Origin: an uncultured Planctomycetia bacterium
GTDB lineage: Bacteria > Omnitrophota > Gorgyraeia > 2-02-FULL-51-18
Assembly: GCA_964606485.1 (NCBI GenBank)
Contig: CAZSGP010000003.1
Location: 66,481 to 130,480, forward strand
DNA length: 64,000 nucleotides
Direction of reading: 5' to 3'
In this document: positions 1,008-28,530 of the stretch, one piece after another
Numbering within the stretch: the first letter of the stretch is position 1
Layout of the letters: each line of letters begins with the position of its first letter
The notes under the pieces: model-generated
Database searches by the model: none
The model's input: only the letters and a program-made list of their open reading frames with translations
What the model was told of the DNA's origin: nothing
Program-made: the position numbers and the translations under genes

Positions 1008-1115
1008 ATGCCCAATAAGAAAAATGTTTTTAAATTCTGTACAACTAGACTTATTCAAACCATTTCTTACGGACTGGTTTTATGTTTGCTTGTCCAGGAT
1101 TTGGCCTGGGCCGCG
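1008..1115 (+). other. N-terminal Sec-type signal peptide or signal anchor of the giant protein
   Basis: MPNKKNVFKFCTTRLIQTISYGLVLCLLVQDLAWA|AP has a basic n-region, a ~15-aa hydrophobic core and an AxA-like AWA motif. Confidence 0.5.
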
Positions 1116-4100
1116 CCTGATTTAAAGTTAGGAGTTAAAGGTAAAGAGCAAAGTCTTAAGTGGGCTAAGACGCTTCTTCCCGAATTGCCAGAGTCGATTG
1201 TTAAGCTCGACGACGCTTGGAGGGGGACAGGGGGGTCCGGCCCCTCTGGCACCGTCATCTTAATCCAAGACGCCCATGCGAACCCTTCGGGGCAAATGAA
1301 TCTTGCGAAGACGTTGGACCTCATCTTTAGTCATGGTGGGGAGGGTGCTCAGGTTTTTCTTGAAGCCGGTTTCGGAGACGATTCTCTTTCCTTTTTAAGA
1401 AATCATGGCTCATTGTCCGAGCGCAAGCGAATCGCCTATAAATATTTATCTAAAGGTCTTCTAAACGGAGAAGAGTACTTGGATCTTACAAGCTCTCACA
1501 ACTTCGCTTTGTGGGGCGTGGAAGATAAGGGTCTTTATCTCAAGGCCCTTAAAAATTATAAGGTCGTAGCTCAAGACCGGTCTAAGTTCAAAGACTATCT
1601 CTCAAAGATTCAAACGACACTAGACATTCTAAAGCCGAGACTGTTAAATCCCGTTCTCTATAAGCTCGACCAAGATCGACAAAGCTATCTTAAAGATAAT
1701 CTTTCGCTTACGGATTATGCGGATACTTTACTTCGCGGAAATGACAGGAAGCGATACCCTAACCTTCAAAAAATAAGCTCTCTCAAGAGCTTAGAGCAAA
1801 GACTCTCCCAACAAAATATTTCACCCCAACACCAAAAGAGAATTGTCGAGCGACTACTTAAGCGCTCTAAGTCTCTGGATTATAAATCGATCCTTGAAGA
1901 AGTGAGGCGTTTGGAGAGCGATGCGTTTCAAGCGCTCACCCTGAATGCCGACGAACAAGCGCTTCTGGATGGTCAACGCTCGCTTGAATTCCTAAAGAAA
2001 CTTTTAAATCTAACCCTAACCCCGGAAGAATATGAAGAATACAAAAGCATTCGTCATCCTGAGCGCAGCGAAGGATCTTCTCTAAGCGAATCATCTAGAA
2101 AAGATTCTTCGGCCAGCGGGCCTCAGAATGACCCTGTAGCGCGTCTAACCGGTTTTCTCAATCAGAATATTATGATGCTCGGAAGCTACTACGAGCGAGC
2201 GCTTTTCCTGGAACCCGGATTTGACTCTATCGTGGCGAACGCCGAAAGTTTTTATGGCCTCACTCTTCAGAGAGACGAGGCCTTCGTCCAGAATATGTTA
2301 AAGAAATCGCCTCGAGCCCTTAGTATTTTAATAGCGGGTGGCTACCACACTCCTAATCTCAAGCGACTCTTGAGAGAAAAAAATATCGCTTATATCGTGC
2401 TGACTCCGCAAGTGACGCGGGAAACAAGCATCGCTAAGTATGAAAAGATTCTCTTAAATCAAAATCTCTTAACCCTAAACCCCGCGACTCTTAATATCAC
2501 TCAAAGCCACATGAGAATAGCTCCTCAAAGAAATATTGCGGGGAGCCGGCTGGTGGCAGAGGTGAAAGACTTGAACGAAACATTCAAGGAGGTTCTGCGT
2601 GATCGCAAAGAAGAGATTCGGGAAGCTAAAACTAGGATAGACGATAATTTGGCGGCCGAAATGATCGGTCAAATGCGAAGTGTTGTTGAAATTTTAGTGA
2701 AATCTCACCAGCTCGAAGCTGGAGGATTGATTGAAGAGAAGCTTGGCCGATTAAAAGAGTTAAAAAATTTAAACTCGAACGCAAAGGAGCAGATTGCACA
2801 ACTTTATGTTTTTTTGAAACGGCATTTTAGCTTGTCCCGTTTTCAGAGTTTTGTCACCGAACACGCTTTGCTTCCCGAGCAAAAAATTTCACCCTCAGTT
2901 GAACGCTACGGGTTAAATCTTGGCGATTATGCGGCGCGGTATACGAAAGCGATGAAAGTAAGTGGGATAAAAAAATTCAGCGGCGTGTACCGTGGAGAGT
3001 TGGCCGTGGTTTCTGGTTATCATTCGCTGATCAGCATCGAAGATCTGGACCGGCTTTCCGAGACGCTGGCCCGCAAAGGCTATGGTTTTGTTTTTGAGGA
3101 TGGCCTAACCTTTTCCCGGGCGGTGAATCCAAAAACTGAAAGTCCTGTAGAACTGCTTCAAATTCCCGTAACGGACTCCGAAACCGGGAAGACGATTACC
3201 CGGGTCGAGCTTGTTCTTTATGACAAGCCCGACGTTGAAGAGGAGCTTGGAAAGTACACCACGGCGATTCGCCAAAGACTTTATCCCCACCAATACTACA
3301 GAGAGACGATTCATCATCCCGATCTAAAAAGACATCAGGTGGATTTCGAGAAAAGTATTTCTGAAATCGCCAAAAGACACGGAATTAACGGACGGTTGAG
3401 TGACGATAAAATCAAAAAAATGGAGCTTTCCATCGCTCTGTCGCTGGTGGCCGAAACATTGTTTTTGAAATTGCCAAAGTCTCTGCAAAAGGAAGCCGAA
3501 GAGCTGGGTATACGCTCCGGTGGAGCGTATCCGGGCTTAGTCCATTTGCATAGCTCTATGAGAACCGCCGTGGAAACTCTTGCGAATCATGAAAAATCAG
3601 AAAAACTCATGAGCATAGACGTTGATAAGCGGACCGCAGAACAAATTGCTGATCTTAATGCGCTAGAGCAGAAACTGTCGCTCGAGAGCCAGAAAAATTT
3701 AGCGGGAAAAAACGCTTTTGTGGATAATTTCCCGCTTTTTATTTTAGACGACCATCTTTTTAAGGATATGGGGGAGCGACAACAAGAAGAATGGAAAGCC
3801 TTTTTTAGAAAAGTAGCCAAGTATTATGCTCAGATGCAATCGGATTATGAGAACATTTGGTCGGAAGATTCAACCAATCCGGCAGCGGCCATTATTGAGC
3901 CGAATGCAGTGTCGATTAATCTTTTACCTGGAAGAACAGAGGCGCAAATTTTGCGCGCACTCAAACAGAGTCATTCGCAAGAAGTATTTAGCCAAAGCGT
4001 TGATCTGGATGCAGACTGTCAATTATTTTTAAATGACATCCCCAAAATCATCACCCACAAAGGACTAGCGGAGATCAAGTTGCTACTCGTTGGCATGAAG

Positions 4101-7100
4101 CCTATTCTCCTTAGAGCAGAAAAGCGAGAGCTCTTTAAACGACTGGAAAAAGAAGTTGAGGGTGTTGAGGCACGTATACGCGCGATAGAGCGCTCGATTG
4201 GAGCAAGACTTTCAGAAGAACCCAAAGGCGCTTCTGTTGTTTGGACGCATGCCAAAGAGATGATGGACGCTATTCAAAAAAGTCCAATCGCACACAGCGG
4301 AAGAGATCAGATTAAACAATTAGCCAAAGATCTTAAAACGATCCCCAGTAAAGCGGAGGAAATTCGAAGGGAAACTAGAGAGTTGTCCGGAAAAATTCAG
4401 TTTAATAACGGAGCCGCCGAGAGATTTGATGAAATTTTGAATTCATCGCTCAAGAATGGAGAAGAAAGAGAGCAATTGGCGCGGCTTTATTGGTATCTCG
4501 ACCAAATGTTCACCGTTCGGGAAGCGCCAACAGTTCGCGTTCAGATTCAGTCCACTCAAAAGCAGTTTGGAAAGTATGCGCTGGATTATTATTTGGAATA
4601 TTTAAAAGAGGGAAATCCACAGGATGCCGCCGCGCTTAAAAGCAGGATAGCTGGAGCGGGATCTTATGCTCGGGAGGGGGTGGGCGTGACTGGTGACTCC
4701 GAAGATTTGCTTAACGATGATGAAGTTCAAAAAGCATCGCGAGTGCTGGATTTTGGAGGACTTGGATTTTTATTCGAAGACGGTCTGACCTTCGCCCGCA
4801 TTCTACCAACGACAACGAGCGCGACGGTAAAATCCTTGTTCATCTATACAAAGAAAAAGGGCGACGCCGCTATCCAAGTCAGGCCCGAGCTTTGGCTGTA
4901 CGCGATGCCGGCAGATCCAGCAACGAAGCTTTTGTTTTTTCAAGACGTCATGGGTGATTTGTATCCGCAGATCGCGCACAGTCCCTTGGTGAAGCGGGTT
5001 TTAGAACAAAAAGAGGCGCGTATTGATGATTATCCGCATCTACCCGGTTTTCTTCCTTCGAAGCTCATCCGCTCTTATTTTGACCTGACAAAGTCAGAAT
5101 CATCCCCTAAGGATTTATTTAAAAGACTGGAAAAGGCAAAAGCGCTTGAACCTCAAGCGCGACAATTAGCTCTTCATGAATTTTACGCTCACATTGGAAA
5201 GGCGCTTTATTTGACCGCAGGAAGCGAGTTTAAGGCTCGTTTCAAAGCAAAGCTTTTTTCGGGGGTTTTGCCGAATGGAGCGATTTATCTTAAAAACTAC
5301 GGGGCACAGCTTAAGAAGTACTACGCGCTCGTGGAGTCTGGCCGGGCCGATTATTGGTCGGAGCAATTGGCGGAGGATGAGCTTGCGGAGAATTTCTTCG
5401 GGGACGTCTTTGCATTTTATTGTTTAAACCAGCTTTTAAAAATACGCTCAATTTACCAGATGAGTGACGAAGACAGTTCTGTGGAATTGACGGTGTTTGT
5501 TAAAGAGTTTGTGGAAAGTCTTAAAGAAAAACATGCTCGAGGTTTGAATGCTTGGCAAATAGAGGATGAGGATGCCGCTAAGAAGATCGAATCGGTTCAG
5601 GCGATCATTCAAGAGCCCAATTGGGTCGGCAGCCCGAAGCATCTTTCAGACGAAACGACAGAGCCTTCTACGCTGAGAGCAGTTGCCAGTCATTTTATTC
5701 GCGAAACGGTTACAGAAGCTAAGAAGCTCTTTGAGAACCCCAATAGAACGGAAAATCAATTGGCGTGGATGATCGAAGGGTTGAGTATTGCCATAAGGGA
5801 TTTTACCCCCTTACTTGAAGATCGTAAGACGACTCGGCTAGCATCTTTAATTTTGGTCCTACCGGTTTACGCGAGGGCACTTTTTTACAGAGGAGATTAT
5901 TCCCAAATGCTCCGGTTTATACAATTAAACCTGCATTATTTGGCCCATTATCTGGAATCGATTGAAGAGAAAAATCTTGCTCAGGCAAATTTTGCGGTAA
6001 GCGTTCACGGGGATTTGCGTAGAACCGTTACCGACGCTATGGCTTTTTTGATCGTAAACGGAAAATACGAATTTGTAAAACCCCTGCAAGAGGCGCTCGA
6101 TAAACTGCGGTCACTCAAGCTCCCAGAGGGCGCTCGTTTAGCGGATTTAAAAGCCTCTTATATTGAATACATAAAAAGGAACAGCGAAGAAATAGACGCC
6201 GCCGTGCTTTACGTGAAGGATCCTTCAAAAGCGCTCAAAATCCAAGCGGAGTTAAGCTCGGCAATTGGTATCCTGAAAGGCGGATTTAAAGTAAAAGCGG
6301 GGGACTTTGTTGACGAGAAATTCTTAAAACTCGCCGGTCTTAAGGAATTTAACCGCTCTCAAAAGGAGCAGTTGGTCTGCCTCTATCTATTTATCAGGGA
6401 TGAATTCAAATACCCTAATTTAATTTCCTTTATCAGTAAGCCCGTGATTACTCCGGAGTCTAAAATTTCAGAATCCATGGAGCGGTACGGCATTCGAGCA
6501 AAGGATTATTATTTGCGTTATGCCAAAAATAAAATGGATACCGAAAATTTTGCCGATCATGAAGGGTTTCTAGATCAATTCATTGGTGTTTTTCGAGCAG
6601 AAGATGAGCGGGTGAGCGGGTACGAGCCTGTGATTACCAGAGAGGATCTGGATGCTCTTTCCGAGATCCTTGCGAAAAGAGGTTTTGGTTTTGTTTTTGA
6701 GGATGGACTCACCTATTCACGGACCATTAATCCTAATGCGTTGGGGCCTGTTCAAATGGTGAATCTGCCTATCAAAGACACCGTGTCCGGAAAGATCGTG
6801 GTCCGGCCTGAAATTGTTCTTTTTGATCGACCGCTCAGCGGCTCCGAGAAGATCAAGCTGTTTGATCGCCAGATGATAGAGTGGCTTTATCCGGACCTGG
6901 CTTTCTCAAGCGTATTTGGAGATCGTTTTCTTGGGCCGCACCAACAGAGCATTGAAGCGTGTATCGCGGCCATTCGCAAGTCCGGTCGAAACACCACCAT
7001 GGATGACGAGAAAATCAAAGGCGCCGCACAACTTGTGTTGTTGTCGATTATTTTTGACTCCCTGTACGAGCGCTTACCCGAAAATTTTATTGCCCGTATT

Positions 7101-10100
7101 GCCAGGATTGCGGCCACCAACAATGTAACGACTCCCGGACCCGCCTACTTAAGAATAATCGGCCGGCACGGAGTGGATGTTATTAATGATAGAAATGAGC
7201 GTGATTCACTTGGTGCTAAAGCGCCCGATCAAAGAACTCCGGATGAGAATCAGAAGATCGATGATCTGAGTTACAGCATCTCCAAGGAATCTATTAAAAG
7301 ACGGATTGGAAAAGTTTTCTTCTCTACCTTTGGCCCCTTGTATGTTTTGAATAAAAATATTCTTAGTCGTGATGGAGAGAGAGTGCCCGATGAAGTTAAA
7401 AAATTATTCGAAGATGTGTCTAAGTATTTTATTGGATTACACGATGATTACCACAATATCTGGGAAGTTCCGGAGGTGGACGCTAATAAACTTCTGCTAG
7501 AAGAACCAAATCCCATTTCAGCGACTTTGAAGCCGTACGCCTTGGAGATACAAGCGATCCGCGTGAACGAAGCTGTCGTGAATGACCCGAATTTTAAAGC
7601 ATCCAACCCCGAGAGTCATCGCGACACCGCGAATGCGTTTATCATGGACATGAAACACATTCGAACCGAAGAGGGATTGTCCCGGATGAGAAGCGTCCTG
7701 TTTGATTTGGTGGCGGCTCTTAAAACGGACAAGTTGAAAGATTTGGCCGCTCAAGCTGAAAGCGCCTTTGAAGAGGCTAAGAATAGAGTAGGTTTGGTGA
7801 CCGCCGCACGGCTTAGTATAGAAACTGGCAATCGCAATCAGGAGATTATTGATCTGTCCCGACAGGCTCTGAGAGTTTATGGTCTAAAAAATTTTGCAAC
7901 CATAATGATCGCTTCCGTTTCGGAGTCAACCCCAGCTTTAGACGAAAGCGGCGCACATCAATTAGACTTGCGTGATGCAACTGCTTTTGCAGAGCTTAGT
8001 CGATTCATTCACGAGGATTACAAAAAGGATTATTCTTATCAAGCGTTGTTCCAAAATTGGAAAGATCTGGAAAGTGTGCATCGCGGGGACGATTACAATG
8101 GGGTTTTTAAGACCCCCGCCGCCAAACAGGATGTATTTTCTTACTACATTTTTGGACGCGTAATCGCTGATGATAAAGATTTTGAAATCGCTTTGAATAA
8201 ACACGATGATGAGGACAGAATTCAGCATAGCGCTCATCGCGCCGCTAAAATTTTTACTGCCATCGACAAATTAGCCCGAGAGTCCGGAGGAGTATTTACA
8301 CTGGGCGAACTTCGAAAAGCCGTCTTTACCGATGTGGATTCAAAATATTTTGATCTGGATCTGGAGCTCATCGACCGCGCGGTACAAATTGCGACGGGTA
8401 GTTTTGAAGAAGGCGCTCGCCTCTCCTGCGAATACATGGAGATGCAAAGAATGGAATTCCTAGGGCGCATTGAAGAAAATGAGACTCGCCGGAAAAAATT
8501 GGCCGACGAACTGACTAAAAAAGCCAAGGCGTATGCGGATGAAATGGAGCGAATCCTCCAAGAGGCCAATTCGAAATTAAAATCTATTCCCAATTCGGAA
8601 GAAATTGTCCACGAAATCGTGCCAGTTATCAAAAAAACATTGAATGACGTGCTCACAAACCCCGCACTGGCGGACCCGGCCAAGTTTGAGCAGGCACTCG
8701 CAACTAACCTAGTCGACGGCATGAAAAACGGCCATCACGCGGGCATTGCAGGGGCGTTGGGGGCGGATTCTCTCAAAGATATCCAAGAGCTGCTTAGCAC
8801 AACCAAGCTAGCCGATGGGAAAAATTTTGTGCAAGCCGTCATGGACTGGCAGGAACAAAATCAAATCTTAACCAAGCTCAAAAAATACGCTGAATCAACA
8901 CTGGTTGAAGGGGTGAGTGTTCCGGAGCTTAAGAAAAAGCAAGGCTTTAAACCCGGTCAAACGGGGCAAGCGTCTGGCGCGCGATTGGCCGCTAAACAGG
9001 AAGTTGATTTTATTGATACGCTCAAAGAATTAAGTGACGACGAAAAGAAGCTTCTTAAGGAGCACTTTGTGGATATGGCGAGCCAAGAATCCAAGCCTTT
9101 GATTGGCCGGGCCGACGATGTGCGTAAAGTTGTATCCGCGCTCTCAAAGCCGAGCGGTTTTAAAAATAGCGTTCTTTTGGTCGGAAAAAAGGGCGTTGGT
9201 AAGTCGGCGCTGGTGCGCATGATTGCTAGATCCATTAAAGAAAAGAAAATTCCCGGCCCGCTTGAGCAGAGAAGAATTTATACCTTAAAAAAATCACTGG
9301 GGTCGACTCCAAGCGACATGAATGACGCGCTGGCTAAGCTTCTGCCGATTTTAGAAAAAACAAAAAATAAAATTATTATTTTCATCGACGAATTTCATGT
9401 GCTGACGCGCGGGATCAACAACACTACGGATTTTGCGGTGGCGGATACCTTGAAACCGTATCTTGAAGAGGGCCGCGTTACCATGATTGGTGCGACGACG
9501 ATTGCCGAGTGCAAGCGATTTATCGAGTCGGAGCCGGGCGGGGCATTTAAAGACCGTTTTGTCGAAGTGAGGCTGGAGGAAACAGACGCTGAAACCACCA
9601 AGGATATCTTGGACGGTTTAAAAGATTTTTATGAGGAAGAGTTTGGGATTCCCATTTCCGAAGGTGCCATTGAAATTGCCGTTGAGCTTTCGGAGCGCTT
9701 CTTGCCGGAGAAATCATTTCCCCGAAAAGCCGTTGACCTCTTGGAGAACACGCTGTCGCACGCTTCAAGTCTTGTGGCCCAGCGCAATTTGCAGATCGAC
9801 GATCTGACAAAGCAGTTGGAATTAAAAACTAAACGCTACATCGGCAACAAGAAAAAAGGTAAAAACGGAGACGACCGGGCGACGACCCAGCTTCACAATC
9901 AAATCATCACCTTGACTCAAGGCATTCTGAAGCTAAAAGCGGAGAGAGATGCTTTAAAAATCACCGAACTCAGTGATCAGGATGTCCGGCGCTACCTGGC
10001 CGATACCACCGGAATTGATTTGGCGCATTTGTCGCAAGGGGAGGCCCAGCGGATGCTGGTGGCCGAAGATGTAATTGGTCAAAAAATCATCGGCCAAGAG

Positions 10101-13100
10101 GCTGCGGTGGGTGCTATTTCCAAGGCGATTCGCCGCTCCCGCTCCGGTATGCGCGACCCCAAGCGTCCCATCGGCAGTTTTGTGCTAGCGGGTCCCACCG
10201 GCGTCGGAAAAACGGAGCTAGCCAAGGCTTTGGCCTTGTTTATGTTTGGCGATGAGTCCAAGATGAAACGCCTGGACATGAGCGAATACATGGAAAAGCA
10301 CAATGCTTCTCGAATGATTGGTTCGCCGCCGGGTTATATCGGGTTTGAAGCGGGCGGAGAGCTTACCGAATACGTCAAAAAAAATCCGTACGCGGTGATT
10401 TTATTCGACGAAATTGAAAAAGCTCATCCGGATGTATTTAATACTCTTTTGCAAATTTTGTCGGATGGCCGCCTGACGGACGGTAAAGGCGAAACCGTCG
10501 ATTTTAAAAATACAGTGATTATTCTCACATCTAATGTCGGCATGACTTCCATTGCGGATTATTTCAAAGGCTTCGAGGAATCCATTAAGCACGCTGAAAG
10601 CTCTGAGGGAATTGATCTAGCGATAAAAGGGATGAACGAAAGAATTGCCGAAGCAGTAAAGAAAGGAATTAACGGTGACCCCGCGCGTTTTAAACCGGAA
10701 TTTTTAAACCGCTTGGATGCAGTGATTCCGATGAGCATCTTGTCGCCTGAAAACGTAAAAGGTATTGCTCGTATCAAAGTGGATAAGGAAATCAGGGCCC
10801 GGCTCGAGAGCGAAAAATGGAGTGTCACTATTTTGCCGGAAGTTCACGAGCTCGTTGCAAAAGAGGGTTACGACCCCGTTTTCGGTGCCCGTCCGCTTAA
10901 CCGCGCCATTGACCGCATGATTTTAGATCCTTTAAGCACTCAAGTCTTGATGACGAAAGCTAAAGAGGGAGAAGAAGCGTCCGGAAACATCGTGATTTCA
11001 GCGATTGGCAAAGAAATTCATTTTAAAATTGATTTAAAGAAACAAGGTGTGATTCAAACCCTGCCTTATCCTGAGGAGCAAAAAGCCATTTATGAAGCAC
11101 TGTTTCAAGAAATCAATAACACTCTCGACAGTGCTGATAGCGCGCTTACGGAAGAAACGCTTAAAAAAATCCTTAAAGTTGATGATAGGGCCGGTGTTTT
11201 AAGCTCCCAAAGCGCCGACTACGGCGTTTACAAGCATAATCAGCCGCTCGCATTTGAAGCAGAAAAAGATAAATCAAAGCGCTCCAATCACAATGCTCCC
11301 AGTAAGGATTCGGGGGTTTTGAAAGCTCAGGAACTCATTTTAGCCGCACTGCAGAGCGAGCCTAAGGTAAACGCAGTAATGAAATTTATTCAATTATTTT
11401 CAAAATGGGCCAAAGAAAATAATGTCGACGCCGAGTTTATCAATCTGGAATGGACTGTTAAAGATAAGAAGCTCCTGATTCGCATTAAAAAAGCCGATAA
11501 AAATGTGATTAAAGATGACGAAGCGAAGACTCTAGTCGAATTCCTTCAGCATAATCCCAAAACCCAAGAAGAGGCTGACGAGATAGCCCGTAAAATTGCC
11601 GAAGAAAAAGGGATTACGGGCGGACAAGCCCTTTTGCGTCTCAAGGCGGCGTTTATTGCGCTCGGAGGAGAATCGACGTTTGGAACATTTGAAAACACTT
11701 ATTGGGCAAGCATTGTGTTAGATGAAGATCTTCAAAAGATGGCGGACGAGTCAAAGCTTAAAGCCGAGACAGCCTATAAGCTGAAGTTGTTGGAGGCATT
11801 ATTTGATTCTCTCCCTGAGCGGTCTATGAGTGATGATCCCAAAAAAACCAATCTCCCGATGGATCGATTTAAATTTTCTATTACCGATGAATTGTGTGGG
11901 TATAAAGGTTATAAAGCGCGCAAACCGTCCGAATCAGATCAAAATAATAAAACAGTTCTTATTTTAGTGAATCCAAAAACAGCGAACTGGAAAATATTTT
12001 TTCAGGATTTCCGATTATATTTAGATGAGTACTACCCCTATTACATGGCCCGCTATTCGGCTTTGGTCGAAAAACTTCAATTTGGAAAACTTGAAGAGCG
12101 GGAGTCGGTTGTTGTCGCGGCAGGTGCGACGGACCAAACTGTCAAAAATCAAGGGGTAGCACCGAAGTCTATTCCTCAGGAATACACGGACATGCTAAAA
12201 AACATTAATGATTTGTACCAATATTTTCCAACTAACATAGCGATTCGGCTTAAGGACAAGCCTCTAGTTGCGGCCATTGTGCTTTATCACGCCTTATTTA
12301 AAAATGATGAGCTTGAGTCTTTTATGAATCTCTGCGTAAATCAGCAAATCGATGAATTTAAAAGGCAGTTAAATGGTTTGCCGGTTATACTAAGTTTGAT
12401 TAATAGATACGATGCTACCAGTATTGAGAGCGGATCCTTGATAGCCCCTGGAGTTCTCCCGCAAATCTGCTTTGTCTCGGGCCTGGAGGAGGATGAGCGT
12501 GGTTCGTATAGAAGATTTTTCTTAGGAAGAACCGCTACAAAATTCTATTCAGGTGATAGTTCGGATTTGGCAACTCAATCAAAATTAGTTATCAACGTTT
12601 CTGAATTAAATGAGCTTCGCGAGAATCTAAAAAAAGCAAAGATCACCAGCCTCCAACGGTCGGCAGCGAAGAGCTCCTCATCTAAAGAATTAAGTAGTGT
12701 GTCCCCGGAATCTGCGGAATCTACCAAGGCCCAAGGAAAACTTTCAAGAAAAACTGTTGCAGAGCTGTTTAGACAGTTTGCCGATCAGGTTAATATCCGT
12801 GGGCCTATCGACAATGAATGTTTTGTCGAATTTAATAGGTCCAACTCGAATGAATTCGTCTTAGAAAAATATACCCAGCGCCGTCAGCAAAGGGCGCGCA
12901 TAAAAATCCAGTCGGAGAAGGGACGAATCCGGAAATTAGAAATTACGCTGTGGCCCGCAGATAAAGGACCTGTAAGAGCGCTTTATATCAACAGAGCCGT
13001 CAATCTAATCCTAGATGTTGTTTTTTTAGGTAAAACACAAGAAGTAATCGTGGTGGTTGATGATAGGGAGCTTGTTGGATTTTTAAGTGCCTATGAATCC

Positions 13101-16100
13101 AATGCAGATAAATCCGATGAATCCATGGAGACTTTAAACACTCGCGTGATCGCCAAATCCGACGCTTTGAAGCGCGCTCAGGAAGATCCTGATTTCGCTA
13201 AGGCATTGAAGTGGAGGAATAAAAAATCTGCTGCACCATCTAACCCACTCGAAGGAGATGTTAAAGCTATTCTTGAGCAAGCGCGTCAGGCCAATGAAAA
13301 TGAGTCGGGCGATCTTAGTGCTGTGAGGGGCGCCGACAATGAACTTGCCATTCGAGCCGAGGATTTTTCTTTGCTGACGACAAAGGATTTCGAAGAAATT
13401 TTAGATAGAGCTTTTTTAGTAGAAGAATCGACGCTTTCAGCTCGTGCTATCCGTTTGACGATAGGCGATTGGGCTAGAAGAAAAAACCAACTAGTTTATT
13501 TGCGCGAGCAGGAAGAGGGGGATGATTCAGTATCGGTATTCGAGCTAAAAATTGGGCAAGCGATCCAGGCGAGCGAATTGATGAAGTGGCTACTGGAGCA
13601 GGACCTTCCGACGGATAACCCCGAAGTCCAGGCCGCTTGGGGAAAAGCTAAAATTAAAATCCGCCGTTTGGCGATAGAGAAGATTACAGGAAGGCAGTCT
13701 GCCGCTTCGGCTCAAGATGTCAAAAATCAAGGACTGACACCGAATGCACCGAATGAATTTAAAGCGCAAGTCCTTCAAAGAGCGTTGGCGAATGTGCGCA
13801 ATAAAAATATTCGCCGCTTCAAGGGTGGAGCCGTAACCAAGGCGTCGGAATCTGAATCTACATTGGTTCTTTTAGACTTCCCCCAAGACGACGCTGATTA
13901 CGATCCCGATCTATTCAGTCCTAGAGTCGCTTCGAAACTGCACCCGGCGGCCATGGAGCTTGCTCGGGAGATTGTCGAGTATCTGAATGGACAGTCGGGC
14001 AACAAGCGCAAAGCCTATGTGAATCAAGACGTTGAGACCGTTTTTGAAGGGGATGTTGAGATTGAGAATGTCTCTGCCGTGGGCATTTCCTTTGAGCGAA
14101 TGACGCAAACTCTAGAAGAAGCCCAGGCTGGCACTGTCGAGCTTTTGCGCGTTGTCGAAGAGTTCCTATTAAAAAAACAAGCTTCGCTTTCAAGTGTCGG
14201 CGATAAATTAAGTAAGGTGTCCCCGGAATCTGCTACTTCAGGTTGGCAATTATTGAATCGTGAGGGGACTGAATATATCAAAATTTCTGTCCCAAAAAAT
14301 TTGGAAGATAGGTTGCTAGGGAAGCCGCTTTTACAAAAGCTAGTTTATCTTTTAGCAGTTGAAGATCTTGTGCAAGCGAAAGATTTTATAAAATCGAATC
14401 TTTCCAAAATTTTAGCAGAAATAAAGAAATTAAATGTCGGGGAAGGACGACTCTGGGCTACAGCCCCGTCCGGAACTGTATTGATTAACGATGGAGCGCC
14501 TACGGAAGGTGCGCTGATTATTCGATTGGAAGAATTTGAAACTACTTTCACAGAATCGAAACAGGAGAGTGCGCAGGTTATATTTAATTACCCTTTATTT
14601 GAAACTGACGTATATTTTAACGCCGATGAAAAAAACGGAAAAAATCTTCGGGAGGTTGGCGCGATAAAAACTCCTTTTGACCAGAGTCCTGTTTTGTGTT
14701 ATCCCGAAGAAATGATTGAGCTTCGCCGTAATCTGGAAGCGCAGAAAGCGAATTCGGGGGACACGAAACCTAATTCTGCAAAAGGCACGGGCGAATTAAG
14801 TAAGGTGTCCCCGGGTTCTAAAGAAAAAGAAAAAAATGTTTCTCAGTGGCAAAAATTTGTGGAAGAGTTGAAGACTAGCGAATCTGCCGCCCCCATCCCC
14901 CCAGCCTCGGCGGACAAGTCAGCTCAAACTGTCAAAAATCAAGCACTGACACCGAATATAACTAAAATTATCTCCCAGTTAGAATCTAAATTAAGTGATG
15001 ACAATTGGGCTGTCTGTCTAGCCGCCGCCACAGCACTCGGACCTATCTACCAAGCTCTCTTCACTCAAGGTAAGATGTCCTTAGAAACCCTAGAATCTAA
15101 ATTAAGAGATAACAATTGGGCTGTCCGTCAAGCCGCCGCCATAGCACTCGGACCTATCTACCAAACTCTCATCACTCAAGGCAAAAAAGTCTCCTTAGAA
15201 ACCTTAGAATCTAAATTAAGCGATTACGAGCGGGATGCCGCCGCCACAGTACTTGGATTTATCTACCAAACTCTCATCACTCAAGGCAAAAAAGTCTTTT
15301 TAAAAACCCTAGAATCTAAATTAATGGATCGCGATGGGACTGTCCGTCGAGCCTCCGTCACAGCACTCGGATCCATCTACCAAACTCTCTTCACTGAAGG
15401 CAAGATATCCTTAGAAACCCTAGATTCTAAATTAATGGATCGCAATGGGACTGTCCGTCAAGCCGCCGCCACAGCACTCGGACCTATCTACCAAGCTCTC
15501 TTCACTCAAGGTAAGATGTCCTTAGAAACCCTAGAATCTAAATTAAGAGATAACAATTGGGCTGTCCGTCAAGCCGCCGCCATAGCACTCGGACCTATCT
15601 ACCAAACTCTCATCACTCAAGGCAAAAAAGTCTCCCTAAAAACCCTAGAATCTAAATTAAGTGATGGCACTTGGACTGTCCAACAAGCCGCCGTCATAGC
15701 ACTCGGACCTATCTACCAAACTCTCTTCACTCAAGGCAAGATGTCCTTAAAAACCCTAGATTCTAAATTAATGGATCGCAATGGGACTGTCCGTCAAGCC
15801 TCCGTCATAGCACTCGGACCTATCTACCAAACTCTCTTCACTGAAGGCAAGATATCCTTAGAAGCCCTAGAATCTAAATTAAGTGATGACGATGAGGCTG
15901 TCCGCCAAGCCGCCGTCACGGCCTTGGGATCTGTCGCGCTATCAATGATTGTAGCGCAGGAGGCAAAACCCGCCGCGCCCGTCCCCACAGCCTCTGCGGA
16001 CAAGAAGGCTCAAAATATCAAAAGAGAATTAAAAAGCGCGTCCCCGAAATCAAAACTTCAAGAGGAGATGGAAGTGGTTGGCGAATATATTCAAAAGCTA

Positions 16101-18974
16101 CGGACAAATTCAGTAGAAGTGAAACCTGATCGCGCATCACAAGTTTCCATCACCCCAAAAACACAACAAGAGTTTGTGGATCAGCTAAAAGCCAGTGTGA
16201 TGAGCGACCCTAGGCTGGGCGAGGTGGAGGATGAACCCACGATTAGCGTTTCTAATGGGGTTGTGACCGTTCAAAAAGAAGTGGCGGGTAACTTCGATGA
16301 GATTCTCGATAGGCAAATGAAAGTGGCTTATGACGAGGGGGGAATTGTCACAGAAGTTGAGGTTGAGGACGTAAATTTATTTAATCCAAGGGATTGGACT
16401 GAGGGCAATGTTATTGATGTTGGTTTCCTTGCCGAGGGTCAGTGTTTGGTTGTAGTGGTTAAAGATGAGTCGCTCAGGTATTTCATGGATGAATTTCAGG
16501 ACGATATTACAGCGATAGCGAATTTAGGATTCAACTACGAAATAATCTCTCTTTCAGAAGCCATTCGAAGATGCGAAGAGCTTGGCTCAATTTTCAAGTT
16601 TACCGATATTACGAATTCAGACGACACAAAACCTAAGTCTGGGGTCGGCAAAGAATTAAGTAATGTGTCCCTGGAATCTGCAGTAAATTCCGTGCCTACG
16701 GTTTTCCGGCGACCAAATAATGTAGAGCTTGAGAGCGCGCAAGAAGCAGTTAGATTACTCAAAGCGCTAATCCAGTCAGGCACTTTTATTCGCATTGCGT
16801 ATCGATTTATGGATGGAGATGAAGATGTTTCCCGTAGCGTGATCAAGGTGAAAAATGACCAGGACAAATGGCTGCTGGTTCAATACAAGCCGGACCAGGA
16901 TCGCGACGGCTGGCAGCTATTTGATTTGGAAAAAATTTATCAAGACGGCGGATTTATGTACTGGAGCGCAACTTCGCAAGGATTGATCATTTCCAATACA
17001 AGAGACTATTTAGACGACTACCAAAACATAGTCCCTAGAGTATCGTCAGAAATTGCATTGGCTGATTATAAAGGTCTGCGTGCTAACTCAGGGGACACGA
17101 AACCTAATTCTGCAAAAGGCACGGGCGAATTAAGTAAGGTGTTCCCGGGTTCTACTGAGAAGGCGCGGGAATGGCTTGATAAAATTGATACTTGGTTGGT
17201 GCAGACTGAGAACTCAGATCAGATCGATCAATCGATTCGATATGTGGTGGAAGAAGATTCGATTATTAGTATGGGGTTCGGACTGGGTTTTAATGCAGGA
17301 ATGACAATGCCTCGAGTGTTCTCCATAGCCGTCAATTTTGAAAAGGTGAATTGGGAGCAATTATTTAGCGCGATCGAAGACCATGTTTTAGATGAGTATG
17401 GAGACAAAGCAGCTTTTAATTGGCGGAAATTTGTAGAAGAGCTGAAGTCATCCACCGGCGCACGGCTTTCCGAGGAAGAAGAAAAGGTTCGAAAAATTAA
17501 TTTAGCCGGCCAAGCCCCGCGGACAATGGGCCTCAAAAACTTTGCTAGCCTCATGATTTTACCGCTCTATCATGCGGAGCTTGCTCCAGAAGGCGAGATT
17601 ACGGGAGACAAAATTCATAAGGCATATGCGCGGGATTTTGCCTACGAAACTATTTATGACCGGTGGAAGGGCTCGGAGCTGATGCACGGCAATGACGATT
17701 ACAATCGAGCGCTTCCCAGCAAAGAAGAAAAAAGAAAAATGCTGTCTTATTATCTTTTTGGGAAATTTATCATCGGAGAAAAAGGTCTGGAGGCCGCTCT
17801 AAACTACAGAGACCGCGAGAGTGAAATCGAATACAGTGCCATGGTTGCTCCTAAAATTTTCAAGGCGATTGCCGATCTTACGCAGGATCGAGCGGGGAGC
17901 TTTACGATAAATGATGTTCGCAAACGACTTGTCGCTCAAAAAGAAGACGGGGAGCATTTCGAGTTGTACTTAACCCTGATTGACCGGGCAGTGGATATTG
18001 CGGAAAACCGGTTTGAGGAAAACGGTGCGCGGTTGGCTCAGGTCTATGTTCGATTCGCGGCGAGCGTGTATCAAGCACAGAAAAAAGACGGTGAGATCGC
18101 GGTGGGACAACACCGCTTTGAAATTCAGTTTAACGCTAAAAGTGGAGAGCTTCTTCTTATTGATAAGCGTTCCGGAAATTTTGAAAAAATTCCAATGAGA
18201 AATCCGGCGCTGTGGAATCCAAAATCAGGCGAGTTTCAAGTAGAGGCGTCGTTAGCGGATCTTCAGATAGCGCTGCATGCGGCTCAACGCGGAAATCGAT
18301 TTGTGATGGAGAGTTTACCGGCCGAAATATTAAATTCTTCTACAAAGACCTTGATTGAGCTCGGGGTGGATCATTTGCTGGCGGACCCTTCTCAGAGACC
18401 GCTTCTTGCGGCGGCGCTTAAAAGAATTTCCGATTCGCCACTCGCTAAAAATTCTAAAATTGTTTTAAAGTCTATCGGTAATGATATTCGGGTGAGTGAG
18501 CTTCTGGAAAATATCCCCAATAAAGACAAATGGATTGTTGGCTCGTACGAGGAGCTCGATCCGGAATATCGTTTGAACGCGCAGAGAGTCCAGGTGGGAG
18601 AGCTGGGTTGTAACGATGGGTTGCTTATTAAAAACGTCCGCTTTTTGCCGACCCAAAAAGCAACAAGCGGCGATATTTTTAATTACGAAGGTGTCCTTCA
18701 GGCAGCCCTTTTAGAAGGAAAAATTTCATCAGATGTTTTAAAAAATGCGACCCATTCGGAGTCCCAAGCCCTTATTCACGCATTTGAAGAGCTGCTTGGA
18801 CGAACGATTCCTCTCGAGCAATACGGCGCGTTTATCCAGGTGATTACGGGCGTTGAAAAAGTCGATCCCAAAGCGGCACTGGCTTTCACTGTGGCTGCGG
18901 CGTTTCATTTGAAGATCCAACAGAGAGTGGCCGGCGCGCGTCTAGCGCGTTTGATGGCCGAGCGGGCCGCTTAA
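1008..18974 (+). CDS. giant multidomain protein (5,988 aa): signal peptide, three paralogous modules, embedded ClpB/ClpC-like double AAA+ ATPase, HEAT-like repeat array; overall function unknown
   Basis: A single uninterrupted ORF of 17,967 nt. An open frame this long cannot arise by chance, and internal conserved domains confirm the frame throughout. Confidence 0.9.
   Translation: [5988 protein letters not shown]
1240..2400 (+). other. possible TraB/GumN/Tiki-superfamily-like region of the giant protein
   Basis: [13 protein letters not shown] near the start and [26 protein letters not shown] near the end resemble the GTxH...GxxHL...G(Y/F)xV motif pair of the TraB/GumN family, separated by ~360 aa. 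This is a motif-level match only. Confidence 0.25.
2770..8000 (+). repeat. three tandem paralogous protein modules (A1 ~2770-4450, A2 ~4450-6340, A3 ~6340-7870) inside the giant ORF
   Basis: Each module holds ...QLY(V/W/L)(F/Y)L...ERYG(L/I)...DYY(L/A)(R/E)Y...[14 protein letters not shown] at 3079-3110, [13 protein letters not shown] at 4760-4790 and [14 protein letters not shown] at 6681-6712, and further on KYYA...DYxNIWSE...EPN. DNA identity is only local: 20 nt are identical at 3085 and 6687. Confidence 0.6.
7870..8430 (+). repeat. module B, copy 1 (GLKNFA...DDYN...SYYIFG...LIDRAVQIA...FEEGARL)
   Basis: Paralogous to 17525-18040, where the same ordered motif string reads [10 protein letters not shown]...DDYN...SYYLFG...LIDRAVDIA...FEENGARL. 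Confidence 0.55.
9000..10950 (+). other. embedded Hsp100 (ClpB/ClpC-type) tandem AAA+ ATPase unit within the giant protein (aa ~2665-3315)
   Basis: D1 reads [11 protein letters not shown]...[10 protein letters not shown] (Walker A, 9183-9212)...IIFIDEFHV (Walker B)...IGATT...DRF. The short coiled-coil linker is followed by D2, [48 protein letters not shown] (10192-10221)...[17 protein letters not shown]...[46 protein letters not shown]...GARPLNRAI, which is about 70% identical to ClpB D2 by eye. Confidence 0.85.
14979..15935 (+). repeat. 9 tandem HEAT/PBS-lyase-like repeats (37-40 aa each; LESKL-D--W-VRQAAA-ALGPIYQ-L-TQGK-SLET)
   Basis: Tandem 111-120-nt coding repeats. The block 15020-15192 recurs almost exactly at 15461-15633, an offset of 441 nt spanning four units. 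Confidence 0.7.
17525..18040 (+). repeat. module B, copy 2
   Basis: See the first module B copy at 7870-8430. Confidence 0.55.
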
Positions 18975-20287
18975 TTTAGAAGATTTAGTCGTAGGAGATT
19001 CAGCGCTTCCTGTGCGGAGCGGAATTTCACAAGTCCGCGCTCACCCAAGAAACGAAATTCTTTGACGAGAGTTTTCTTTGGAGCGGAAAGCGCTACAAAA
19101 ACAAGACCCACCGGTTTTTTAGCGGTTCCACCGCTAGGTCCAGCCACACCGGTAATGCCAATTCCATAAGTAGAGTTAAATTTTTTACGAACGCCTTCGG
19201 CCATTTGCGCGGCAACGGGTGAGCTCACCGCACCCAATTTTTCTAGCACCTTTGGATCCACATTTAGCTCGCTTGTCTTTACACGGTTGGCGTAGGCAAT
19301 CAAACCGCCTAGAAAATAATCCGAGCTGCCCGACGCTTCAGTGAGGAGATGCCCGAGCAAGCCGCCCGTACATGACTCTGCCACGGCGAGAGTCGATTTA
19401 TTTTTCCGTAGTAAATTTCCAACGGCCTCCGAAAGAGTTTCTTCGTCGGTCCCGTAAATAAAATTTCCTAAGCGCTTACGAATAATTTTTTCTATTTTCC
19501 CGCACTCGGCTTGCGCCTGAGACTTGGAAGGCGACTTAGACATAATCTTGAGCTCTGTTTCGCCGGGCTTTGCATAAATGCCGACCGTCACCGGCGGTTT
19601 TAATTTTAAAAGATCCCCAACTTTTTCAGCAACTTGGTGTTCGAGGAATCCGACGATTTTAATGGAACGAATCATAAAGTGATCGCGTTGGTAGCCGGAT
19701 TTCTTTTGAAGAAGGGATAGCGCTTGCTTTGAAAACATAGGCTTGAGTTCGCGCGGAGGACCGGGGAGCACCATTACCCAGACGTCATTGCGAGCCAGTT
19801 TTTCGGGCGAAGCAATCTCGCTTAAAGAGCTAGATTGCTTCGTCGCTGCAGCTCCTCGCAATGACAGACGAGCCAGATAGCCTGAAGCCGTTCCGAAATC
19901 GTTTATAAAGACCTGCGCGCCTCGCGGAATGTAGCACTGCTTTGCGACAATCGGCGTCATTCGCAATTTTCTTTTCTTCAAGCGCTGAAGAATATATTTA
20001 TAAGTCGGCTTGTGAAGAACGAGCGGCTCGTTTAAAAATTTTGCAACTGCCTCGCTCGTGACATCGTCTTCAGTGGGGCCGAGGCCGCCGGTGGTGATGA
20101 TGAGATCTGAGCGCGTTGCAGCAAGTGTTAAATCTTCGACAATTCGACCGACATTGTCACCCACAGTGGACTGATGGTAGACGTCGATGCCGTTCTGAGC
20201 GAGTTCTTGACAGAGAAATTGGGCGTTGCTGTTTAAAATGGACCCAACCAGCAATTCGGTGCCAATGGAAAGTATTTCAGCCTTCAT
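18971..20287 (-). CDS. cinA: competence/damage-inducible protein CinA (nicotinamide-nucleotide amidohydrolase family)
   Basis: MKAEILSIGTELLVGSILNSNAQFLCQEL...TTGGLGPTEDDVT at the N-terminus, with a CinA C-terminal domain. Its 3' end overlaps the stop region of the giant ORF in convergent orientation. Confidence 0.85.
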   Translation of the reverse strand: MKAEILSIGTELLVGSILNSNAQFLCQELAQNGIDVYHQSTVGDNVGRIVEDLTLAATRSDLIITTGGLGPTEDDVTSEAVAKFLNEPLVLHKPTYKYILQRLKKRKLRMTPIVAKQCYIPRGAQVFINDFGTASGYLARLSLRGAAATKQSSSLSEIASPEKLARNDVWVMVLPGPPRELKPMFSKQALSLLQKKSGYQRDHFMIRSIKIVGFLEHQVAEKVGDLLKLKPPVTVGIYAKPGETELKIMSKSPSKSQAQAECGKIEKIIRKRLGNFIYGTDEETLSEAVGNLLRKNKSTLAVAESCTGGLLGHLLTEASGSSDYFLGGLIAYANRVKTSELNVDPKVLEKLGAVSSPVAAQMAEGVRKKFNSTYGIGITGVAGPSGGTAKKPVGLVFVALSAPKKTLVKEFRFLGERGLVKFRSAQEALNLLRLNLLN

Positions 20288-20434: not shown

Positions 20435-21514
20435 ATGGCGTTTCAGACCAAACAGCAAAAAGCACAGAATAAACCCGAAGCAAAGAGCACCGAAAAGGCT
20501 CCGCTACCCTCGGGAGATAAGAATAAAGATACCGCCGAAAAAAATAAGGCTATTTCCGCGGCTGTTTCTCAAATTGAGAAACAATTCGGAAAAGGTTCGA
20601 TCATGACGCTCGGACAAAACGTCAAAGTCGACGTGGCTGTGATTCCTACCGGAACCATCGGTTTGGACATGGCGCTCGGAGTTGGCGGCGTTCCCAAAGG
20701 CCGTGTGATTGAAATTTTTGGACCGGAGTCGAGCGGAAAAACGACATTAACCCTAAGCATTATCGCACAGTGCCAAAAACTCAAGGGCACCGCAGCGTTT
20801 ATTGACGCAGAACATGCGTTTGATTCCGCCTACGCCAAGAAATTAGGCGTGAATCTCGATGATCTTCTCATTTCTCAGCCGGACACCGGCGAGCAAGCGT
20901 TGGAGATCGCCGAAATGTTGGTCCGTTCGAATGCCATCGACCTCATCGTCGTTGACTCCGTGGCGGCACTTGTTCCCAAAGCGGAAATCGAAGGGGAGAT
21001 GGGTCAGTCGCATGTCGGATTGCAGGCTCGCTTGATGAGCCAAGCGCTTCGTAAACTAACCGCGGCTATTTCCCGTTCAAGAGCCTGTATGATTTTTATC
21101 AATCAGCTCCGCGAAAAAGTCGGAATCATGTTCGGAAACCCCGAAACGACTCCCGGTGGACGCGCGCTTAAGTTTTATTCGTCAGTTCGCTTAGACATTC
21201 GTCGCATTGCGCAAATCAAGCGCGGTGAAGAAATTGTCGGTGGTCGTGTTCGCGTCAAAGTCGTCAAAAACAAAGTGGCCGCACCGTTTAAACAGGCGGA
21301 ATTTGACTTGATGTATGATGAGGGTGTTTCGGCGATCGGAAGCGTGCTCGATGTGGCTGAGACGCTTGAGATCACGAAACAGAGCGGCTCGTGGATTCTT
21401 TACAACGACGAAAAGCTTGGCCAAGGCCGCGAGAACGCAAAGAACTTTTTGCGTGAGAATCCAAAGATTCTGCACGAACTCGAAAAGCGCATCAAAGAGA
21501 AATCTCTGGTCTAA
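20435..21514 (+). CDS. recA: recombinase RecA
   Basis: [15 protein letters not shown]...[32 protein letters not shown]. It carries a ~30-aa K/E-rich N-terminal extension. Confidence 0.95.
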
Positions 21515-21523
21515 ATTTTAAGA

Positions 21524-22045
21524 GTGTCTTTGATGGAAGATTCTAAAGGGACAGCCCCTGAAAACGAGGCTGTCCCTTTAAAAATTAAAAGTGACGCTCT
21601 AAGGCTCCTAAGTTTCAGAGCCCGGAGCGTTGACGAATTGCGCAAGCGCCTGAGGCTTAAAAAGCATCCGGCGGATTTGATCGAGAAAGAAATCGAGACT
21701 TTAAAAAGCCAAGGTTTTTTAGACGACGAGAAATTCGCTAAGATTTACACCGCTGCCAAAACGTTTACGAATCCGGCGGGGCGGCGACGGCTTGAGATCG
21801 AGCTGAAGGCCAAAGGCGTGGCTGGTTCGACAATTCAAAAGACGCTCAGCGAATTTTCGGACGAAGATGAGCAAAAAATTGCGTTTGATCTTGCGCGCGG
21901 ACGCTTTGACCGCATGAAAGACTTACCGGACCAGAAAAAGAAGGCGCGGATTTACGGGTTTCTCAAGCGCAAGGGGTTTGGGGACGGAATTGTTTATAAA
22001 GTTTTGAGCGATTTGTTAAAAGGAAACGTAGAAATTGACGACTGA
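21524..22045 (+). CDS. recX: RecA regulator RecX
   Basis: A helical-repeat protein, ALRLLSFRARSVDELRKRLRLKKHPADLIEKEIETLKSQGFLDDEKFA, located immediately 3' of recA. Confidence 0.8.
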   Translation: MSLMEDSKGTAPENEAVPLKIKSDALRLLSFRARSVDELRKRLRLKKHPADLIEKEIETLKSQGFLDDEKFAKIYTAAKTFTNPAGRRRLEIELKAKGVAGSTIQKTLSEFSDEDEQKIAFDLARGRFDRMKDLPDQKKKARIYGFLKRKGFGDGIVYKVLSDLLKGNVEIDD

Positions 22046-27787: not shown

Positions 27788-28530
27788 TCCCGTGCCTGGA
27801 CGTGAAAGACGGCCGCGTGGTCAAAGGAACGAAGTTTTTGGAATTACGCGACGCCGGTGACCCAGTCGAATGCGCGGCTCATTACGACAAAGACGGGGCA
27901 GACGAGCTTGTTTTTTTAGACATTACCGCCTCGCATGAAAAACGCGGTACACTTTTAGACGTGGTGCGTCGCACCGCAGAGACGGTTTTTATGCCGCTGA
28001 CCGTGGGCGGCGGGGTGAATTCCATCGAGGATATTCGCACGCTTTTAAATGCCGGAGCGGACAAGGTTTCAATTAATACGGCGGCGGTTCGGAATCCGAA
28101 TTTTATCAAGGAAGCGTCGAAGCGATTTGGATCGCAGTGCATCGTGGTGGCAATTGATGCGAGACGACGGGGAGCCAAAAAAAGTTGGGGAGTTTTTACC
28201 CACGGTGGTCGAACCGATGCAGGCTTAGACGCCGTCGCATGGGCCAAAAAAGTTGAAAAGTTGGGCGCAGGCGAAATTTTACTCACGAGCATGGACTGCG
28301 ACGGCACTAAGGGCGGTTATGACTTGGAGCTTACCCGAAAAATATCGGAGTCCGTGCGGATTCCGGTGATCGCCTCGGGCGGTGTTGGAAATTTAGATCA
28401 TTTGCTTGAAGGATTGACGAAGGGAAAGGCCGATGCGGTGCTTGCCGCTAGTATTTTTCATTTTAAGGAATATAGTATTCAGGAAGCTAAACGGTACCTC
28501 TCTAAAAAAGGAGTAGTAGTCAGAAAATGA
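27769..28530 (+). CDS. hisF: imidazole glycerol phosphate synthase cyclase subunit
   Basis: [15 protein letters not shown]...PVIASGGVG. Confidence 0.95.

Follow-up and report, generated by a model that had tools for sequence, protein, structure and literature searches.

Three ancient paralogues of an orphan domain lie between conserved delimiter peptides in a giant Omnitrophota protein

What three similar segments laid head to tail in one giant protein represent, and whether each is a unit in its own right, is the question raised by a locus of an uncultured Planctomycetia bacterium (Omnitrophota in the GTDB lineage). The locus lies within a stretch of 64,000 nucleotides (nt), hereafter the window (GenBank assembly GCA_964606485.1, contig CAZSGP010000003.1, positions 66,481 to 130,480), in which a single uninterrupted open reading frame (ORF) on the forward strand, nt 1008-18974, encodes a protein of 5,988 amino acids (aa). 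An initial annotation, made from the DNA letters, had described three consecutive paralogous modules at nt 2770-8000, and had proposed that each folds independently and that an invariant acidic FEDGLT motif could mark a catalytic or binding site. The modules, here called A1, A2 and A3, occupy nt 2541-7802; they are tandem paralogues of ancient origin, and their alpha+beta domain is an orphan. The overall explanation that we favour, with somewhat more confidence than doubt, is that they are old orphan-domain cassettes set between short delimiter peptides of the type G-A-R-L (GARL), akin to fused genes, the delimiters probably being processing sites and the A domain a binding module.

The natural boundaries of the modules, all on the forward strand, are at nt 2541, 4200, 6129 and 7803, that is ~230 nt before the annotated interval at its 5' end and ~200 nt before it at its 3' end. 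A1 (nt 2541-4199, aa 512-1064, 553 aa) is composed of a ~110-aa helical leader, a ~350-aa core and a helical tail, with its aligned core segment at nt 2865-3977. A2 (nt 4200-6128, aa 1065-1707, 643 aa; core segment nt 4530-5732) is the most diverged and has a longer C-terminal tail, and A3 (nt 6129-7802, aa 1708-2265, 558 aa) has its core at nt 6450-7592, the segment that was modelled with AlphaFold2. No rival ORF of at least 80 aa is found on either strand within nt 2541-7802. When the protein is searched against itself in tiles with BLAST, aa 517-1071 pair with aa 1709-2272, with E values that reach 1e-42 in a 200-aa tile, and aa 1113-1330, from A2, pair with both other copies at E=1e-5 to 1e-13. 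Module against module, BLASTP aligns A1 with A3 over 554 aa at 30.5% identity (E=5.7e-85), A1 with A2 over 195 aa (E=2.4e-11) and A2 with A3 over 232 aa (E=3.4e-16); shuffled versions of A2 (n=200) reach at most 27.7 bits, as against 52-68 bits for the real sequence. With BLAST, only the N-terminal half of A2 aligns. A profile made from A1, A3 and three foreign copies, with A2 left out, covers its complete core (hidden Markov model (HMM) positions 5-342 of 359, 119 bits, E=1e-38), and there are therefore three full copies. In other words, the paralogy put forward by the initial annotation is real, and the pairwise similarity is significant well beyond the short motifs on which it was noticed. 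The ordered chain of such motifs that had been described is complete in A1 and A3 and partial in A2, where KQFG stands for ERYG, VTGD for VSGY and NAW for NIW.

At the level of DNA the copies are only 37-44% identical, and at residues that are identical between copies their third codon positions agree in 40-44% of cases, such that synonymous sites have reached saturation. No run shared between copies exceeds 21 nt; the longest starts at nt 3083 and 6686 and codes for GFVFEDG, essentially as the annotation had it (20 nt at 3085 and 6687) in describing the DNA identity as patchy. The HEAT array further along the same gene (nt 14980-15919; 8.5 HEAT-like tandem repeats with a 111-nt period) retains 82% DNA identity. 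The HEAT duplication is therefore much younger than the triplication, which bears out the order of events first suggested; in itself the triplication is an ordinary event for a protein class prone to repeats.

The core common to all copies comprises ~350 aa (HMM positions 116-464), whereas the helical leader of ~110 aa, with its E-Q-(I/L)-A-x-L-Y motif, and the helical tail, of 100-170 aa in the window copies, are additions present in proteins with GARL-type delimiters. An AlphaFold2 model of the A3 core, made from an alignment of 13 copies (those of the window and of the four relatives named below), is predicted with confidence (predicted local distance difference test score, pLDDT, 85.4; predicted template modelling score, pTM, 0.85). 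In it, three N-terminal helices are followed by one that terminates in G-F-G-F and then by a short helix with a turn (V-F-E-D-G). Next come an antiparallel sheet of three strands, to which the segment G-F-G-F-x-F-E-D-G-L-T-x-x-R leads, and a bundle of about ten more helices. Given that the core folds confidently alone, that a delimiter stands on either side of each module and that the same domain lies between delimiters in two foreign proteins, each A module is very probably a self-contained folding unit, as the initial annotation had supposed.

None of the searches placed this domain in a known family. A Foldseek search with the A3 core model returned nothing significant (best E 0.5 in the PDB and 0.04 in BFVD, template modelling (TM) scores up to 0.26), Pfam and NCBIfam searches with each module and all 13 copies gave nothing meaningful at E values up to 10, and a PDB sequence-profile search with the copies and their profiles gave noise only. 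HMMER over 1.84 billion representative proteins found just four relatives, all of them large and multi-module: P0001 (5,499 aa), P0002 (1,333 aa), P0003 (2,751 aa, truncated N-terminally at a contig end) and P0004 (4,420 aa), in the last of which a more distant version occurs as a tandem array of seven. A word-indexed search of 5.8 billion proteins with 3-copy and 13-copy profiles gave no match, missing even these four. Among 185,579 GTDB species genomes, module patterns matched 94 times without one true relative, and a scan of JGI metagenomes for the coding pattern of FxFEDGLT(Y/F) gave 30 loci, all due to chance by HMM check. Viral contigs, phage records and plasmid records held no match to an A module, and 81 loci of the giant-protein family held none beyond that of P0003. 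Stand-alone homologues of a single module, for which the initial annotation had proposed a search, are thus absent from every collection searched. The A domain is an undescribed and extremely rare domain family, essentially without relatives. All 13 copies can nevertheless be aligned end to end over the core, keeping the Gly of G-F-G-F and the Arg of T-x-x-R. In P0001 an A-like module lies upstream of, and directly adjoins, a calcineurin-like phosphoesterase, and in P0002 it stands in the same relation to PP2C.

The FEDGLT motif (nt 3093-3110 in A1, 4773-4790 in A2 and 6696-6713 in A3) falls, in the model, on the short helix and turn into the first strand of the sheet. A1, A2, A3 and P0001 share it unchanged, P0002 has FSDGLS and P0003 FND-LT in its place, and all seven P0004 copies have a degenerate version (LDRDIG, FEKDMA, LDKAIA, LRKVIG and others). 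Across the 13 copies only Gly78 of G-F-G-F and Arg91 of T-x-x-R are invariant, Gly46 and Asp126 being nearly so; in the six closer copies the invariant positions include Arg49, Gly78, Phe83, Asp85, Leu87, Arg91 and Pro128. The motif is therefore not the invariant site that had been proposed, and a catalytic role for a pair of acids is not supported; a binding or structural role for the Asp and Arg residues is possible. Because of the alternating Phe/Leu/Tyr pattern and the place of the motif in the model, this region is suggested to serve as a turn in the structure, where Asp and Arg might bind a ligand, and not to hold a conserved acid pair. P0001 and P0002 also carry two motifs, H-E-I-G-E in a helix and F-A-D-Y-F-A, with a faint resemblance to those of HExxH ... 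ExxAxxFA metallopeptidases. An assignment as a zincin or ImmA-IrrE-like peptidase was considered and rejected: A1-A3 have no HExxH, the positions aligned with H-E-I-G-E read LSLVAE, AHIGKA and SIIFDS in the window copies, which thus lack the residues in question, Pfam lends no support, and peptidase entries in the Foldseek search with the A core appear only at E of at least 0.95 and TM up to 0.21.

What sets the modules apart from one another is a short peptide. G-A-R-L occurs seven times in the giant protein (0.18 expected). One GSRL and one AARL bring the total to nine sites, which lie at aa 512, 1065, 1708, 2266, 2469, 2657, 5484, 5673 and 5976, all at module edges; for the class [GAS][AS]RL as a whole the nine sites compare with 1.2 expected. 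Four of the nine delimit A1, A2 and A3 exactly, the bracketing peptide being G-A-R-L-(A/S): G-S-R-L between the N-terminal domain and A1 (nt 2541-2552), G-A-R-L between A1 and A2 (4200-4211) and between A2 and A3 (6129-6140), and A-A-R-L between A3 and the following module, B1 (7803-7814). The other five, all G-A-R-L on the forward strand (8412-8423, 8976-8987, 17457-17468, 18024-18035 and 18933-18944), fall at the borders of B1 and B2, where a ClpB-like unit starts, and at the C-terminal domain. Disorder is predicted for the 20 residues that precede the first delimiter (pLDDT <50). The final GARL stands nine residues before the stop codon, and P0003 likewise ends in GARL followed by ten residues. 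The 12-nt coding sequence of the delimiter differs at every site, and it is therefore the peptide, not the DNA, that is under selection; an origin of the repeat at the DNA level, as a recombination site or repeat element, is rejected on the same observation. Moreover, an A-type domain is bracketed by RSEMR at aa 2684 and RSEMR at aa 3033 in P0001, and by GARL at aa 1245 and GSRL at aa 1708 in P0003. Since it is flanked in each case by the delimiter type of its host, the delimiter is a property of the host, and the module is a cassette that can move. Between the sixth and seventh delimiters of the window protein other linkers recur, namely V-K-N-Q-G/A-x-x-P at nt ~12141, 13719 and 14931 and S-x-V-S-P/L-E/G-S at nt ~12693, 14211, 14799 and 16659, and these may represent a second kind of junction. 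The recurrent linkers include a 30-residue segment (ANSGDTKPNSAKGTGELSKV.PGS) at aa 4580-4609 and 5358-5387, whose repeats are 83-95% identical.

The same peptides punctuate the wider family. In 64 long family ORFs, [GAS][AS]R[LM] is observed 254 times (48 expected) and R[SA]E[MVILAT][RK] 72 times (6.5 expected), with one delimiter class, GARL-like or RSEMR-like, per protein. Proteins whose N-terminal domains are at least 31% identical to that of the window have GARL-type sites, and those at 26% or less have RSEMR-type sites or none. The logo of 253 GARL-like sites is (S/A)-[G65/A31]-A89-R100-[L82/M17]-[A67/S15], where the numbers are percentages, and the flanks are rich in Ser, Pro, Ala, Gly and Glu. 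Three loci on GTDB Omnitrophota contigs, L008 (CAZXLF010000009.1), L041 (CAZBAY010000090.1) and L053 (JAKLFP010000008.1), illustrate what lies between the sites. The domains recognised in them, with coordinates taken as the best-scoring stretch per family, are bracketed by delimiters and none is interrupted, domain edges in several cases being 4-15 residues from a delimiter. L041 contains a complete phosphoglucose isomerase (aa 2456-2945, E=3e-221) between delimiters at 2397 and 2954, and a DnaJ J domain (aa 1586-1649) between those at 1579 and 1655, 4 aa past the latter of which a HAD hydrolase begins. In L008, malate synthase lies within the interval 794-1571, isocitrate lyase begins 14 aa past the delimiter at 1571 (interval 1571-2349), and a 2-hydroxyacid dehydrogenase and an adenylate kinase lie within 2895-3314 and 3416-3791; in L053, PfkB lies within 544-978 and NUDIX within 1210-1482. 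In this family, therefore, delimiters of one of two types separate units, many of which are complete and normally free-standing enzymes. A basic stretch and a hydrophobic helix are also seen just past a delimiter in P0001 (aa ~596-640, 1550-1590 and 2155-2200) and in P0003 (aa 255-285), and in their sequence these starts look like those of separate membrane proteins with an anchor at the N-terminus.

The domain that heads the chain (nt 1008-2540, forward strand, aa 1-511) is the conserved domain of a multi-copy family of Omnitrophota giant proteins. Residues 15-33 are the sole hydrophobic segment of the entire protein and, with Lys/Arg before and A-W-A after, look like a Sec signal peptide or anchor. 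The domain measures ~450-500 aa in the family, and P0001 and P0003 can both be aligned with aa 1-511. A query of GTDB genomes with this domain gave 90 stretches, nearly all from metagenome-assembled genomes (MAGs) of Candidatus Omnitrophota, some labelled TPA (third-party annotation) 'Planctomycetia', and one genome can contain seven or more paralogues. Against 68 GTDB loci, aa 1-511 are 19-47% identical (tblastn E down to 1e-111). The word-indexed search adds stand-alone proteins of ~500 aa, all annotated as hypothetical, such that the domain is found by itself as well as heading giant proteins. Its invariant residues include Q87, D88, H90, Q96, E119, R422, G444, G445 and H447 (Q-D-A-H ... 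E ... G-G-x-H), and in an AlphaFold2 model from an alignment of 31 sequences (pLDDT 85.4) D88/H90, E119 and H447 each stand just after a beta-strand, with a ~260-aa helical insertion splitting the domain. PF04187 (ChaN/Tiki) matches 8 of 69 members weakly. The TIKI superfamily includes the sequence-specific endopeptidase RRSP, which has a 2His/2Glu site (E3900, H3902, E3930 and H4030), and the protease Tiki (PMC6254334). In the TIKI/TraB/ChaN/erythromycin-esterase superfamily as a whole, to which only this domain of the window protein is comparable, the likeness is in the Asp/Glu-x-His ... Glu ... His arrangement of its hydrolases, formed here by D88-x-H90, E119 29 residues later and H447 in G-G-x-H, set against the RRSP site; the differences are profile matches below the Pfam threshold, the ~260-aa helical insertion and a ChaN match in Foldseek that is not significant. 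Membership of the TIKI superfamily is accordingly suggestive, not established.

Within this domain an in-frame insertion at nt ~2052-2135 (aa ~349-376, …HPERSEGSSLSESSRKDSSASGPQND…) is lacking from the homologous domain of P0001. At the DNA level its ends are imperfectly inverted (GTCATCCTGAGCG … GCCTCAGAATGAC), and it resembles a small palindromic repeat element; a repeat search found no exact inverted repeat there. A similar-looking peptide (SLRGAAATKQSSSLSEIASPEKLARND) interrupts the product of cinA (nt 18971-20287, reverse strand).

Beyond the A modules the protein contains a second repeat family, B1 (nt 7803-8411, aa 2266-2468) and B2 (nt 17457-18023, aa 5484-5672), each with delimiters on either side. 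They are 35-43% identical over ~190-200 aa (E=1e-33). Pfam has no match for them, and neither P0001-P0004 nor the giant-family loci searched contain a relative. A double AAA+ unit of the ClpB/Hsp104 type (nt ~9096-10976) begins ~40 aa past the GARL at aa 2657, with AAA, AAA_lid_9, AAA_2 and ClpB_D2-small in order (PF00004 1e-18, PF17871 2e-15, PF07724 3e-48 and PF10431 1e-17) and with Walker A and B motifs in its translation. All of these are on the forward strand. The C-terminus matches that of P0003 (E=5e-11), both ending in GARL and 9-10 residues, and P0003 shares the architecture of N-terminal domain, GARL sites, A module, HEAT repeats and C-terminal domain. A visual impression that P0001 and P0004 are also similar at the C-terminus found no match in BLAST. 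Most family loci end before their C-termini.

The giant ORF is flanked by pgpA on one side (nt 326-892, upstream; PF04608, E=5e-35) and, from reading of the translations, by cinA and recA on the other, and the genes from nt 20435 to 32718, all on the forward strand, are recA, recX, alaS, hisD, hisB, hisH, hisA, hisF, trpE, trpG, trpD and trpC. Its location between pgpA and cinA-recA, with his and trp genes beyond, is therefore an ordinary chromosomal one. The same recA is found on a Logan contig (41 kb, SRR12487046), the sole public contig found to carry it, which has merely the last 619 codons of the giant ORF. That fact, together with the metagenomic source, is what might raise the suspicion of an assembly or gene-calling artefact, be it a chimeric contig or collapsed repeats. 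Such an origin is scarcely credible, set against an open frame of 17.9 kb with no competing ORF, a base composition that is even along the full length of the gene, copies so far diverged in their DNA that they are not collapsed or mis-joined repeats, the shared architecture of P0003, and the N-terminal domain and delimiters recurring in dozens of GTDB MAG loci.

In the explanation that we prefer, the A modules would be three fused 'genes' that fold and act as separate units, and the delimiters would be exposed linkers, probably serving as processing sites, for which the N-terminal TIKI-like domain would be the most obvious candidate protease. The A domain would be a non-catalytic, multivalent ligand- or protein-binding module rather than an enzyme, in the service of adjoining catalytic modules, namely the ClpB-like ATPase here and the phosphatase-type modules in two relatives. 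A binding module is preferred because the domain occurs in tandem arrays (three here, seven in P0004), because no polar constellation is conserved beyond one Asp and two Arg, and because phosphatase-type modules adjoin it in those two relatives; confidence in a multivalent binding or adaptor role is low. The other possibility for the A modules is that they are enzymes, with FEDGLT and the conserved arginines forming an active or substrate site and the copies being isozymes or acting in successive steps on one substrate. The identity of the E-D pair in A1, A2, A3 and P0001 would fit this, as would the invariance of Asp85, Arg49 and Arg91 in the six closer copies, the fact that many other cassettes of the protein family are genuine enzymes and the faint likeness of the P0001 and P0002 motifs to those of metallopeptidases. 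Set against it are the replacement of the Glu by Ser and Asn in P0002 and P0003, the degeneracy of the motif in P0004, the loss from all three window copies of the histidine and glutamates of HEIGE, the failure of profile and fold searches to link the domain with an enzyme family, and arrays of three and seven that are more typical of binding modules. Overall, we judge an enzymatic role around Asp85, Arg49 and Arg91 to be rather improbable, if still a live alternative.

Whether the units are ever released is the second matter on which the explanations part. They could instead form the spacer or scaffold of a permanently intact, membrane-tethered giant, GARL being a conserved hinge or docking peptide. 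The protease role of any domain remains putative, the HEAT repeats, like the long helical leaders and tails, point to scaffolding, a long part of the chain is wholly without GARL, and in the published preprints such proteins figure as single chains for which no cleavage points are given. As free-standing enzymes, phosphoglucose isomerase and isocitrate lyase are oligomeric, yet here they are bracketed by delimiters; moreover, a motif of four to five residues with 100% Arg, 89% Ala and free choice of codons is conserved beyond the needs of a passive hinge, and units in P0001 and P0003 start past a delimiter with a basic stretch and a hydrophobic helix. A permanently intact chain is on the whole unlikely, if deserving of some weight. 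The opposite extreme is a full polyprotein, in which the N-terminal TIKI-like domain, or its ~500-aa stand-alone paralogues, would cut at each GARL or RSEMR delimiter and so free the metabolic enzymes, the ClpB-like ATPase and three A proteins; this we regard as possible and, taken in its entirety, doubtful.

Several points weigh against the preferred explanation of fused units with probable processing sites. Cleavage at the delimiters, plausible as it is, is something that we infer from sequence throughout, and it is for want of evidence to the contrary that the A domain is taken to be non-catalytic: Asp85, Arg49 and Arg91 are, after all, invariant in the six closer copies, and the HEIGE helix of P0001 and P0002 could be a metal site that has been lost in the window copies. 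For the candidate protease, the PF04187 scores are 16-21 bits as against a cut-off of 27.7, Foldseek lists ChaN at E=1.3 only, in a search dominated by long helices, and a PDB sequence search with the N-terminal domain gave no match. The delimiter class follows the subfamily of the N-terminal domain, but common descent alone would yield that. From aa 2657 to 5484, a stretch of 2,827 aa, the window protein has other recurrent linkers and no GARL, which is therefore not the sole boundary signal. Finally, the N-terminus is Sec-like, yet the ATPase here and the glycolytic and glyoxylate-cycle enzymes of the paralogues need the cytoplasm; the same tension between compartments was noted for larger proteins in a 2026 preprint (10.64898/2026.06.07.730766).

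Among the closest known systems are the Omnitrophota giant proteins themselves, with which the window protein shares the phylum, an N-terminal signal or anchor, HEAT scaffolding, and AAA+ and metabolic-enzyme modules on one chain; the published 'multi-enzyme cluster' class, moreover, matches L008 and L041. At 5,988 aa the window protein differs from the proteins of more than 30,000 aa that are the published focus. Polyproteins of viruses and eukaryotes, and the 'polyvalent proteins' of phages, are alike in having unrelated units in one ORF with short conserved junction peptides, and unlike in that this is a chromosomal bacterial gene for which no phage, plasmid or viral relatives were found and which has no recognised family of processing protease. 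The cysteine protease domain of MARTX proteins cuts after a Leu that precedes a small residue, a cut that resembles GARL-(A/S) by analogy only. MARTX proteins (multifunctional autoprocessing repeats-in-toxin) are toxins, very large, secreted single chains whose unrelated effector modules are freed by cleavage between modules, one such effector being the TIKI-superfamily endopeptidase RRSP (PMC6254334). The window protein is not a MARTX member: many cassettes of its family are housekeeping-type enzymes, not toxins, and a Pfam scan of the whole protein in eight pieces found no Peptidase_C80, RTX repeats or other MARTX hallmarks.

Giant multi-domain proteins are a signature of the Omnitrophota, and whether and where they are cut is openly unsettled in the literature. 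HEAT scaffolds, multi-enzyme architectures and an association with membranes are described in two preprints on these proteins (10.1101/2023.11.21.568195; 10.64898/2026.06.07.730766), and the cleavage points were given as unknown by West-Roberts et al. 2023 (10.1101/2023.11.21.568195). Neither of the two mentions a delimiter, linker rule or polyprotein, and neither speaks of the A domain or the shared N-terminal TIKI-like domain; the string 'RSEMR' has no occurrence in the literature text searched. The GARL and RSEMR delimiters are the first concrete candidates for cut sites in these giant proteins and provide, for one subfamily, a sequence rule, namely a short, strongly conserved peptide between units of which many are whole enzymes. 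This rule makes the question of processing testable, and offers a principled way of splitting such proteins for structure prediction and annotation. Should the sites prove to be uncleaved, it would still define the cassette grammar by which the genes are assembled; should the polyprotein reading be true, the giant genes of the Omnitrophota would be bacterial polyproteins, and the delimiters their long-sought processing sites.

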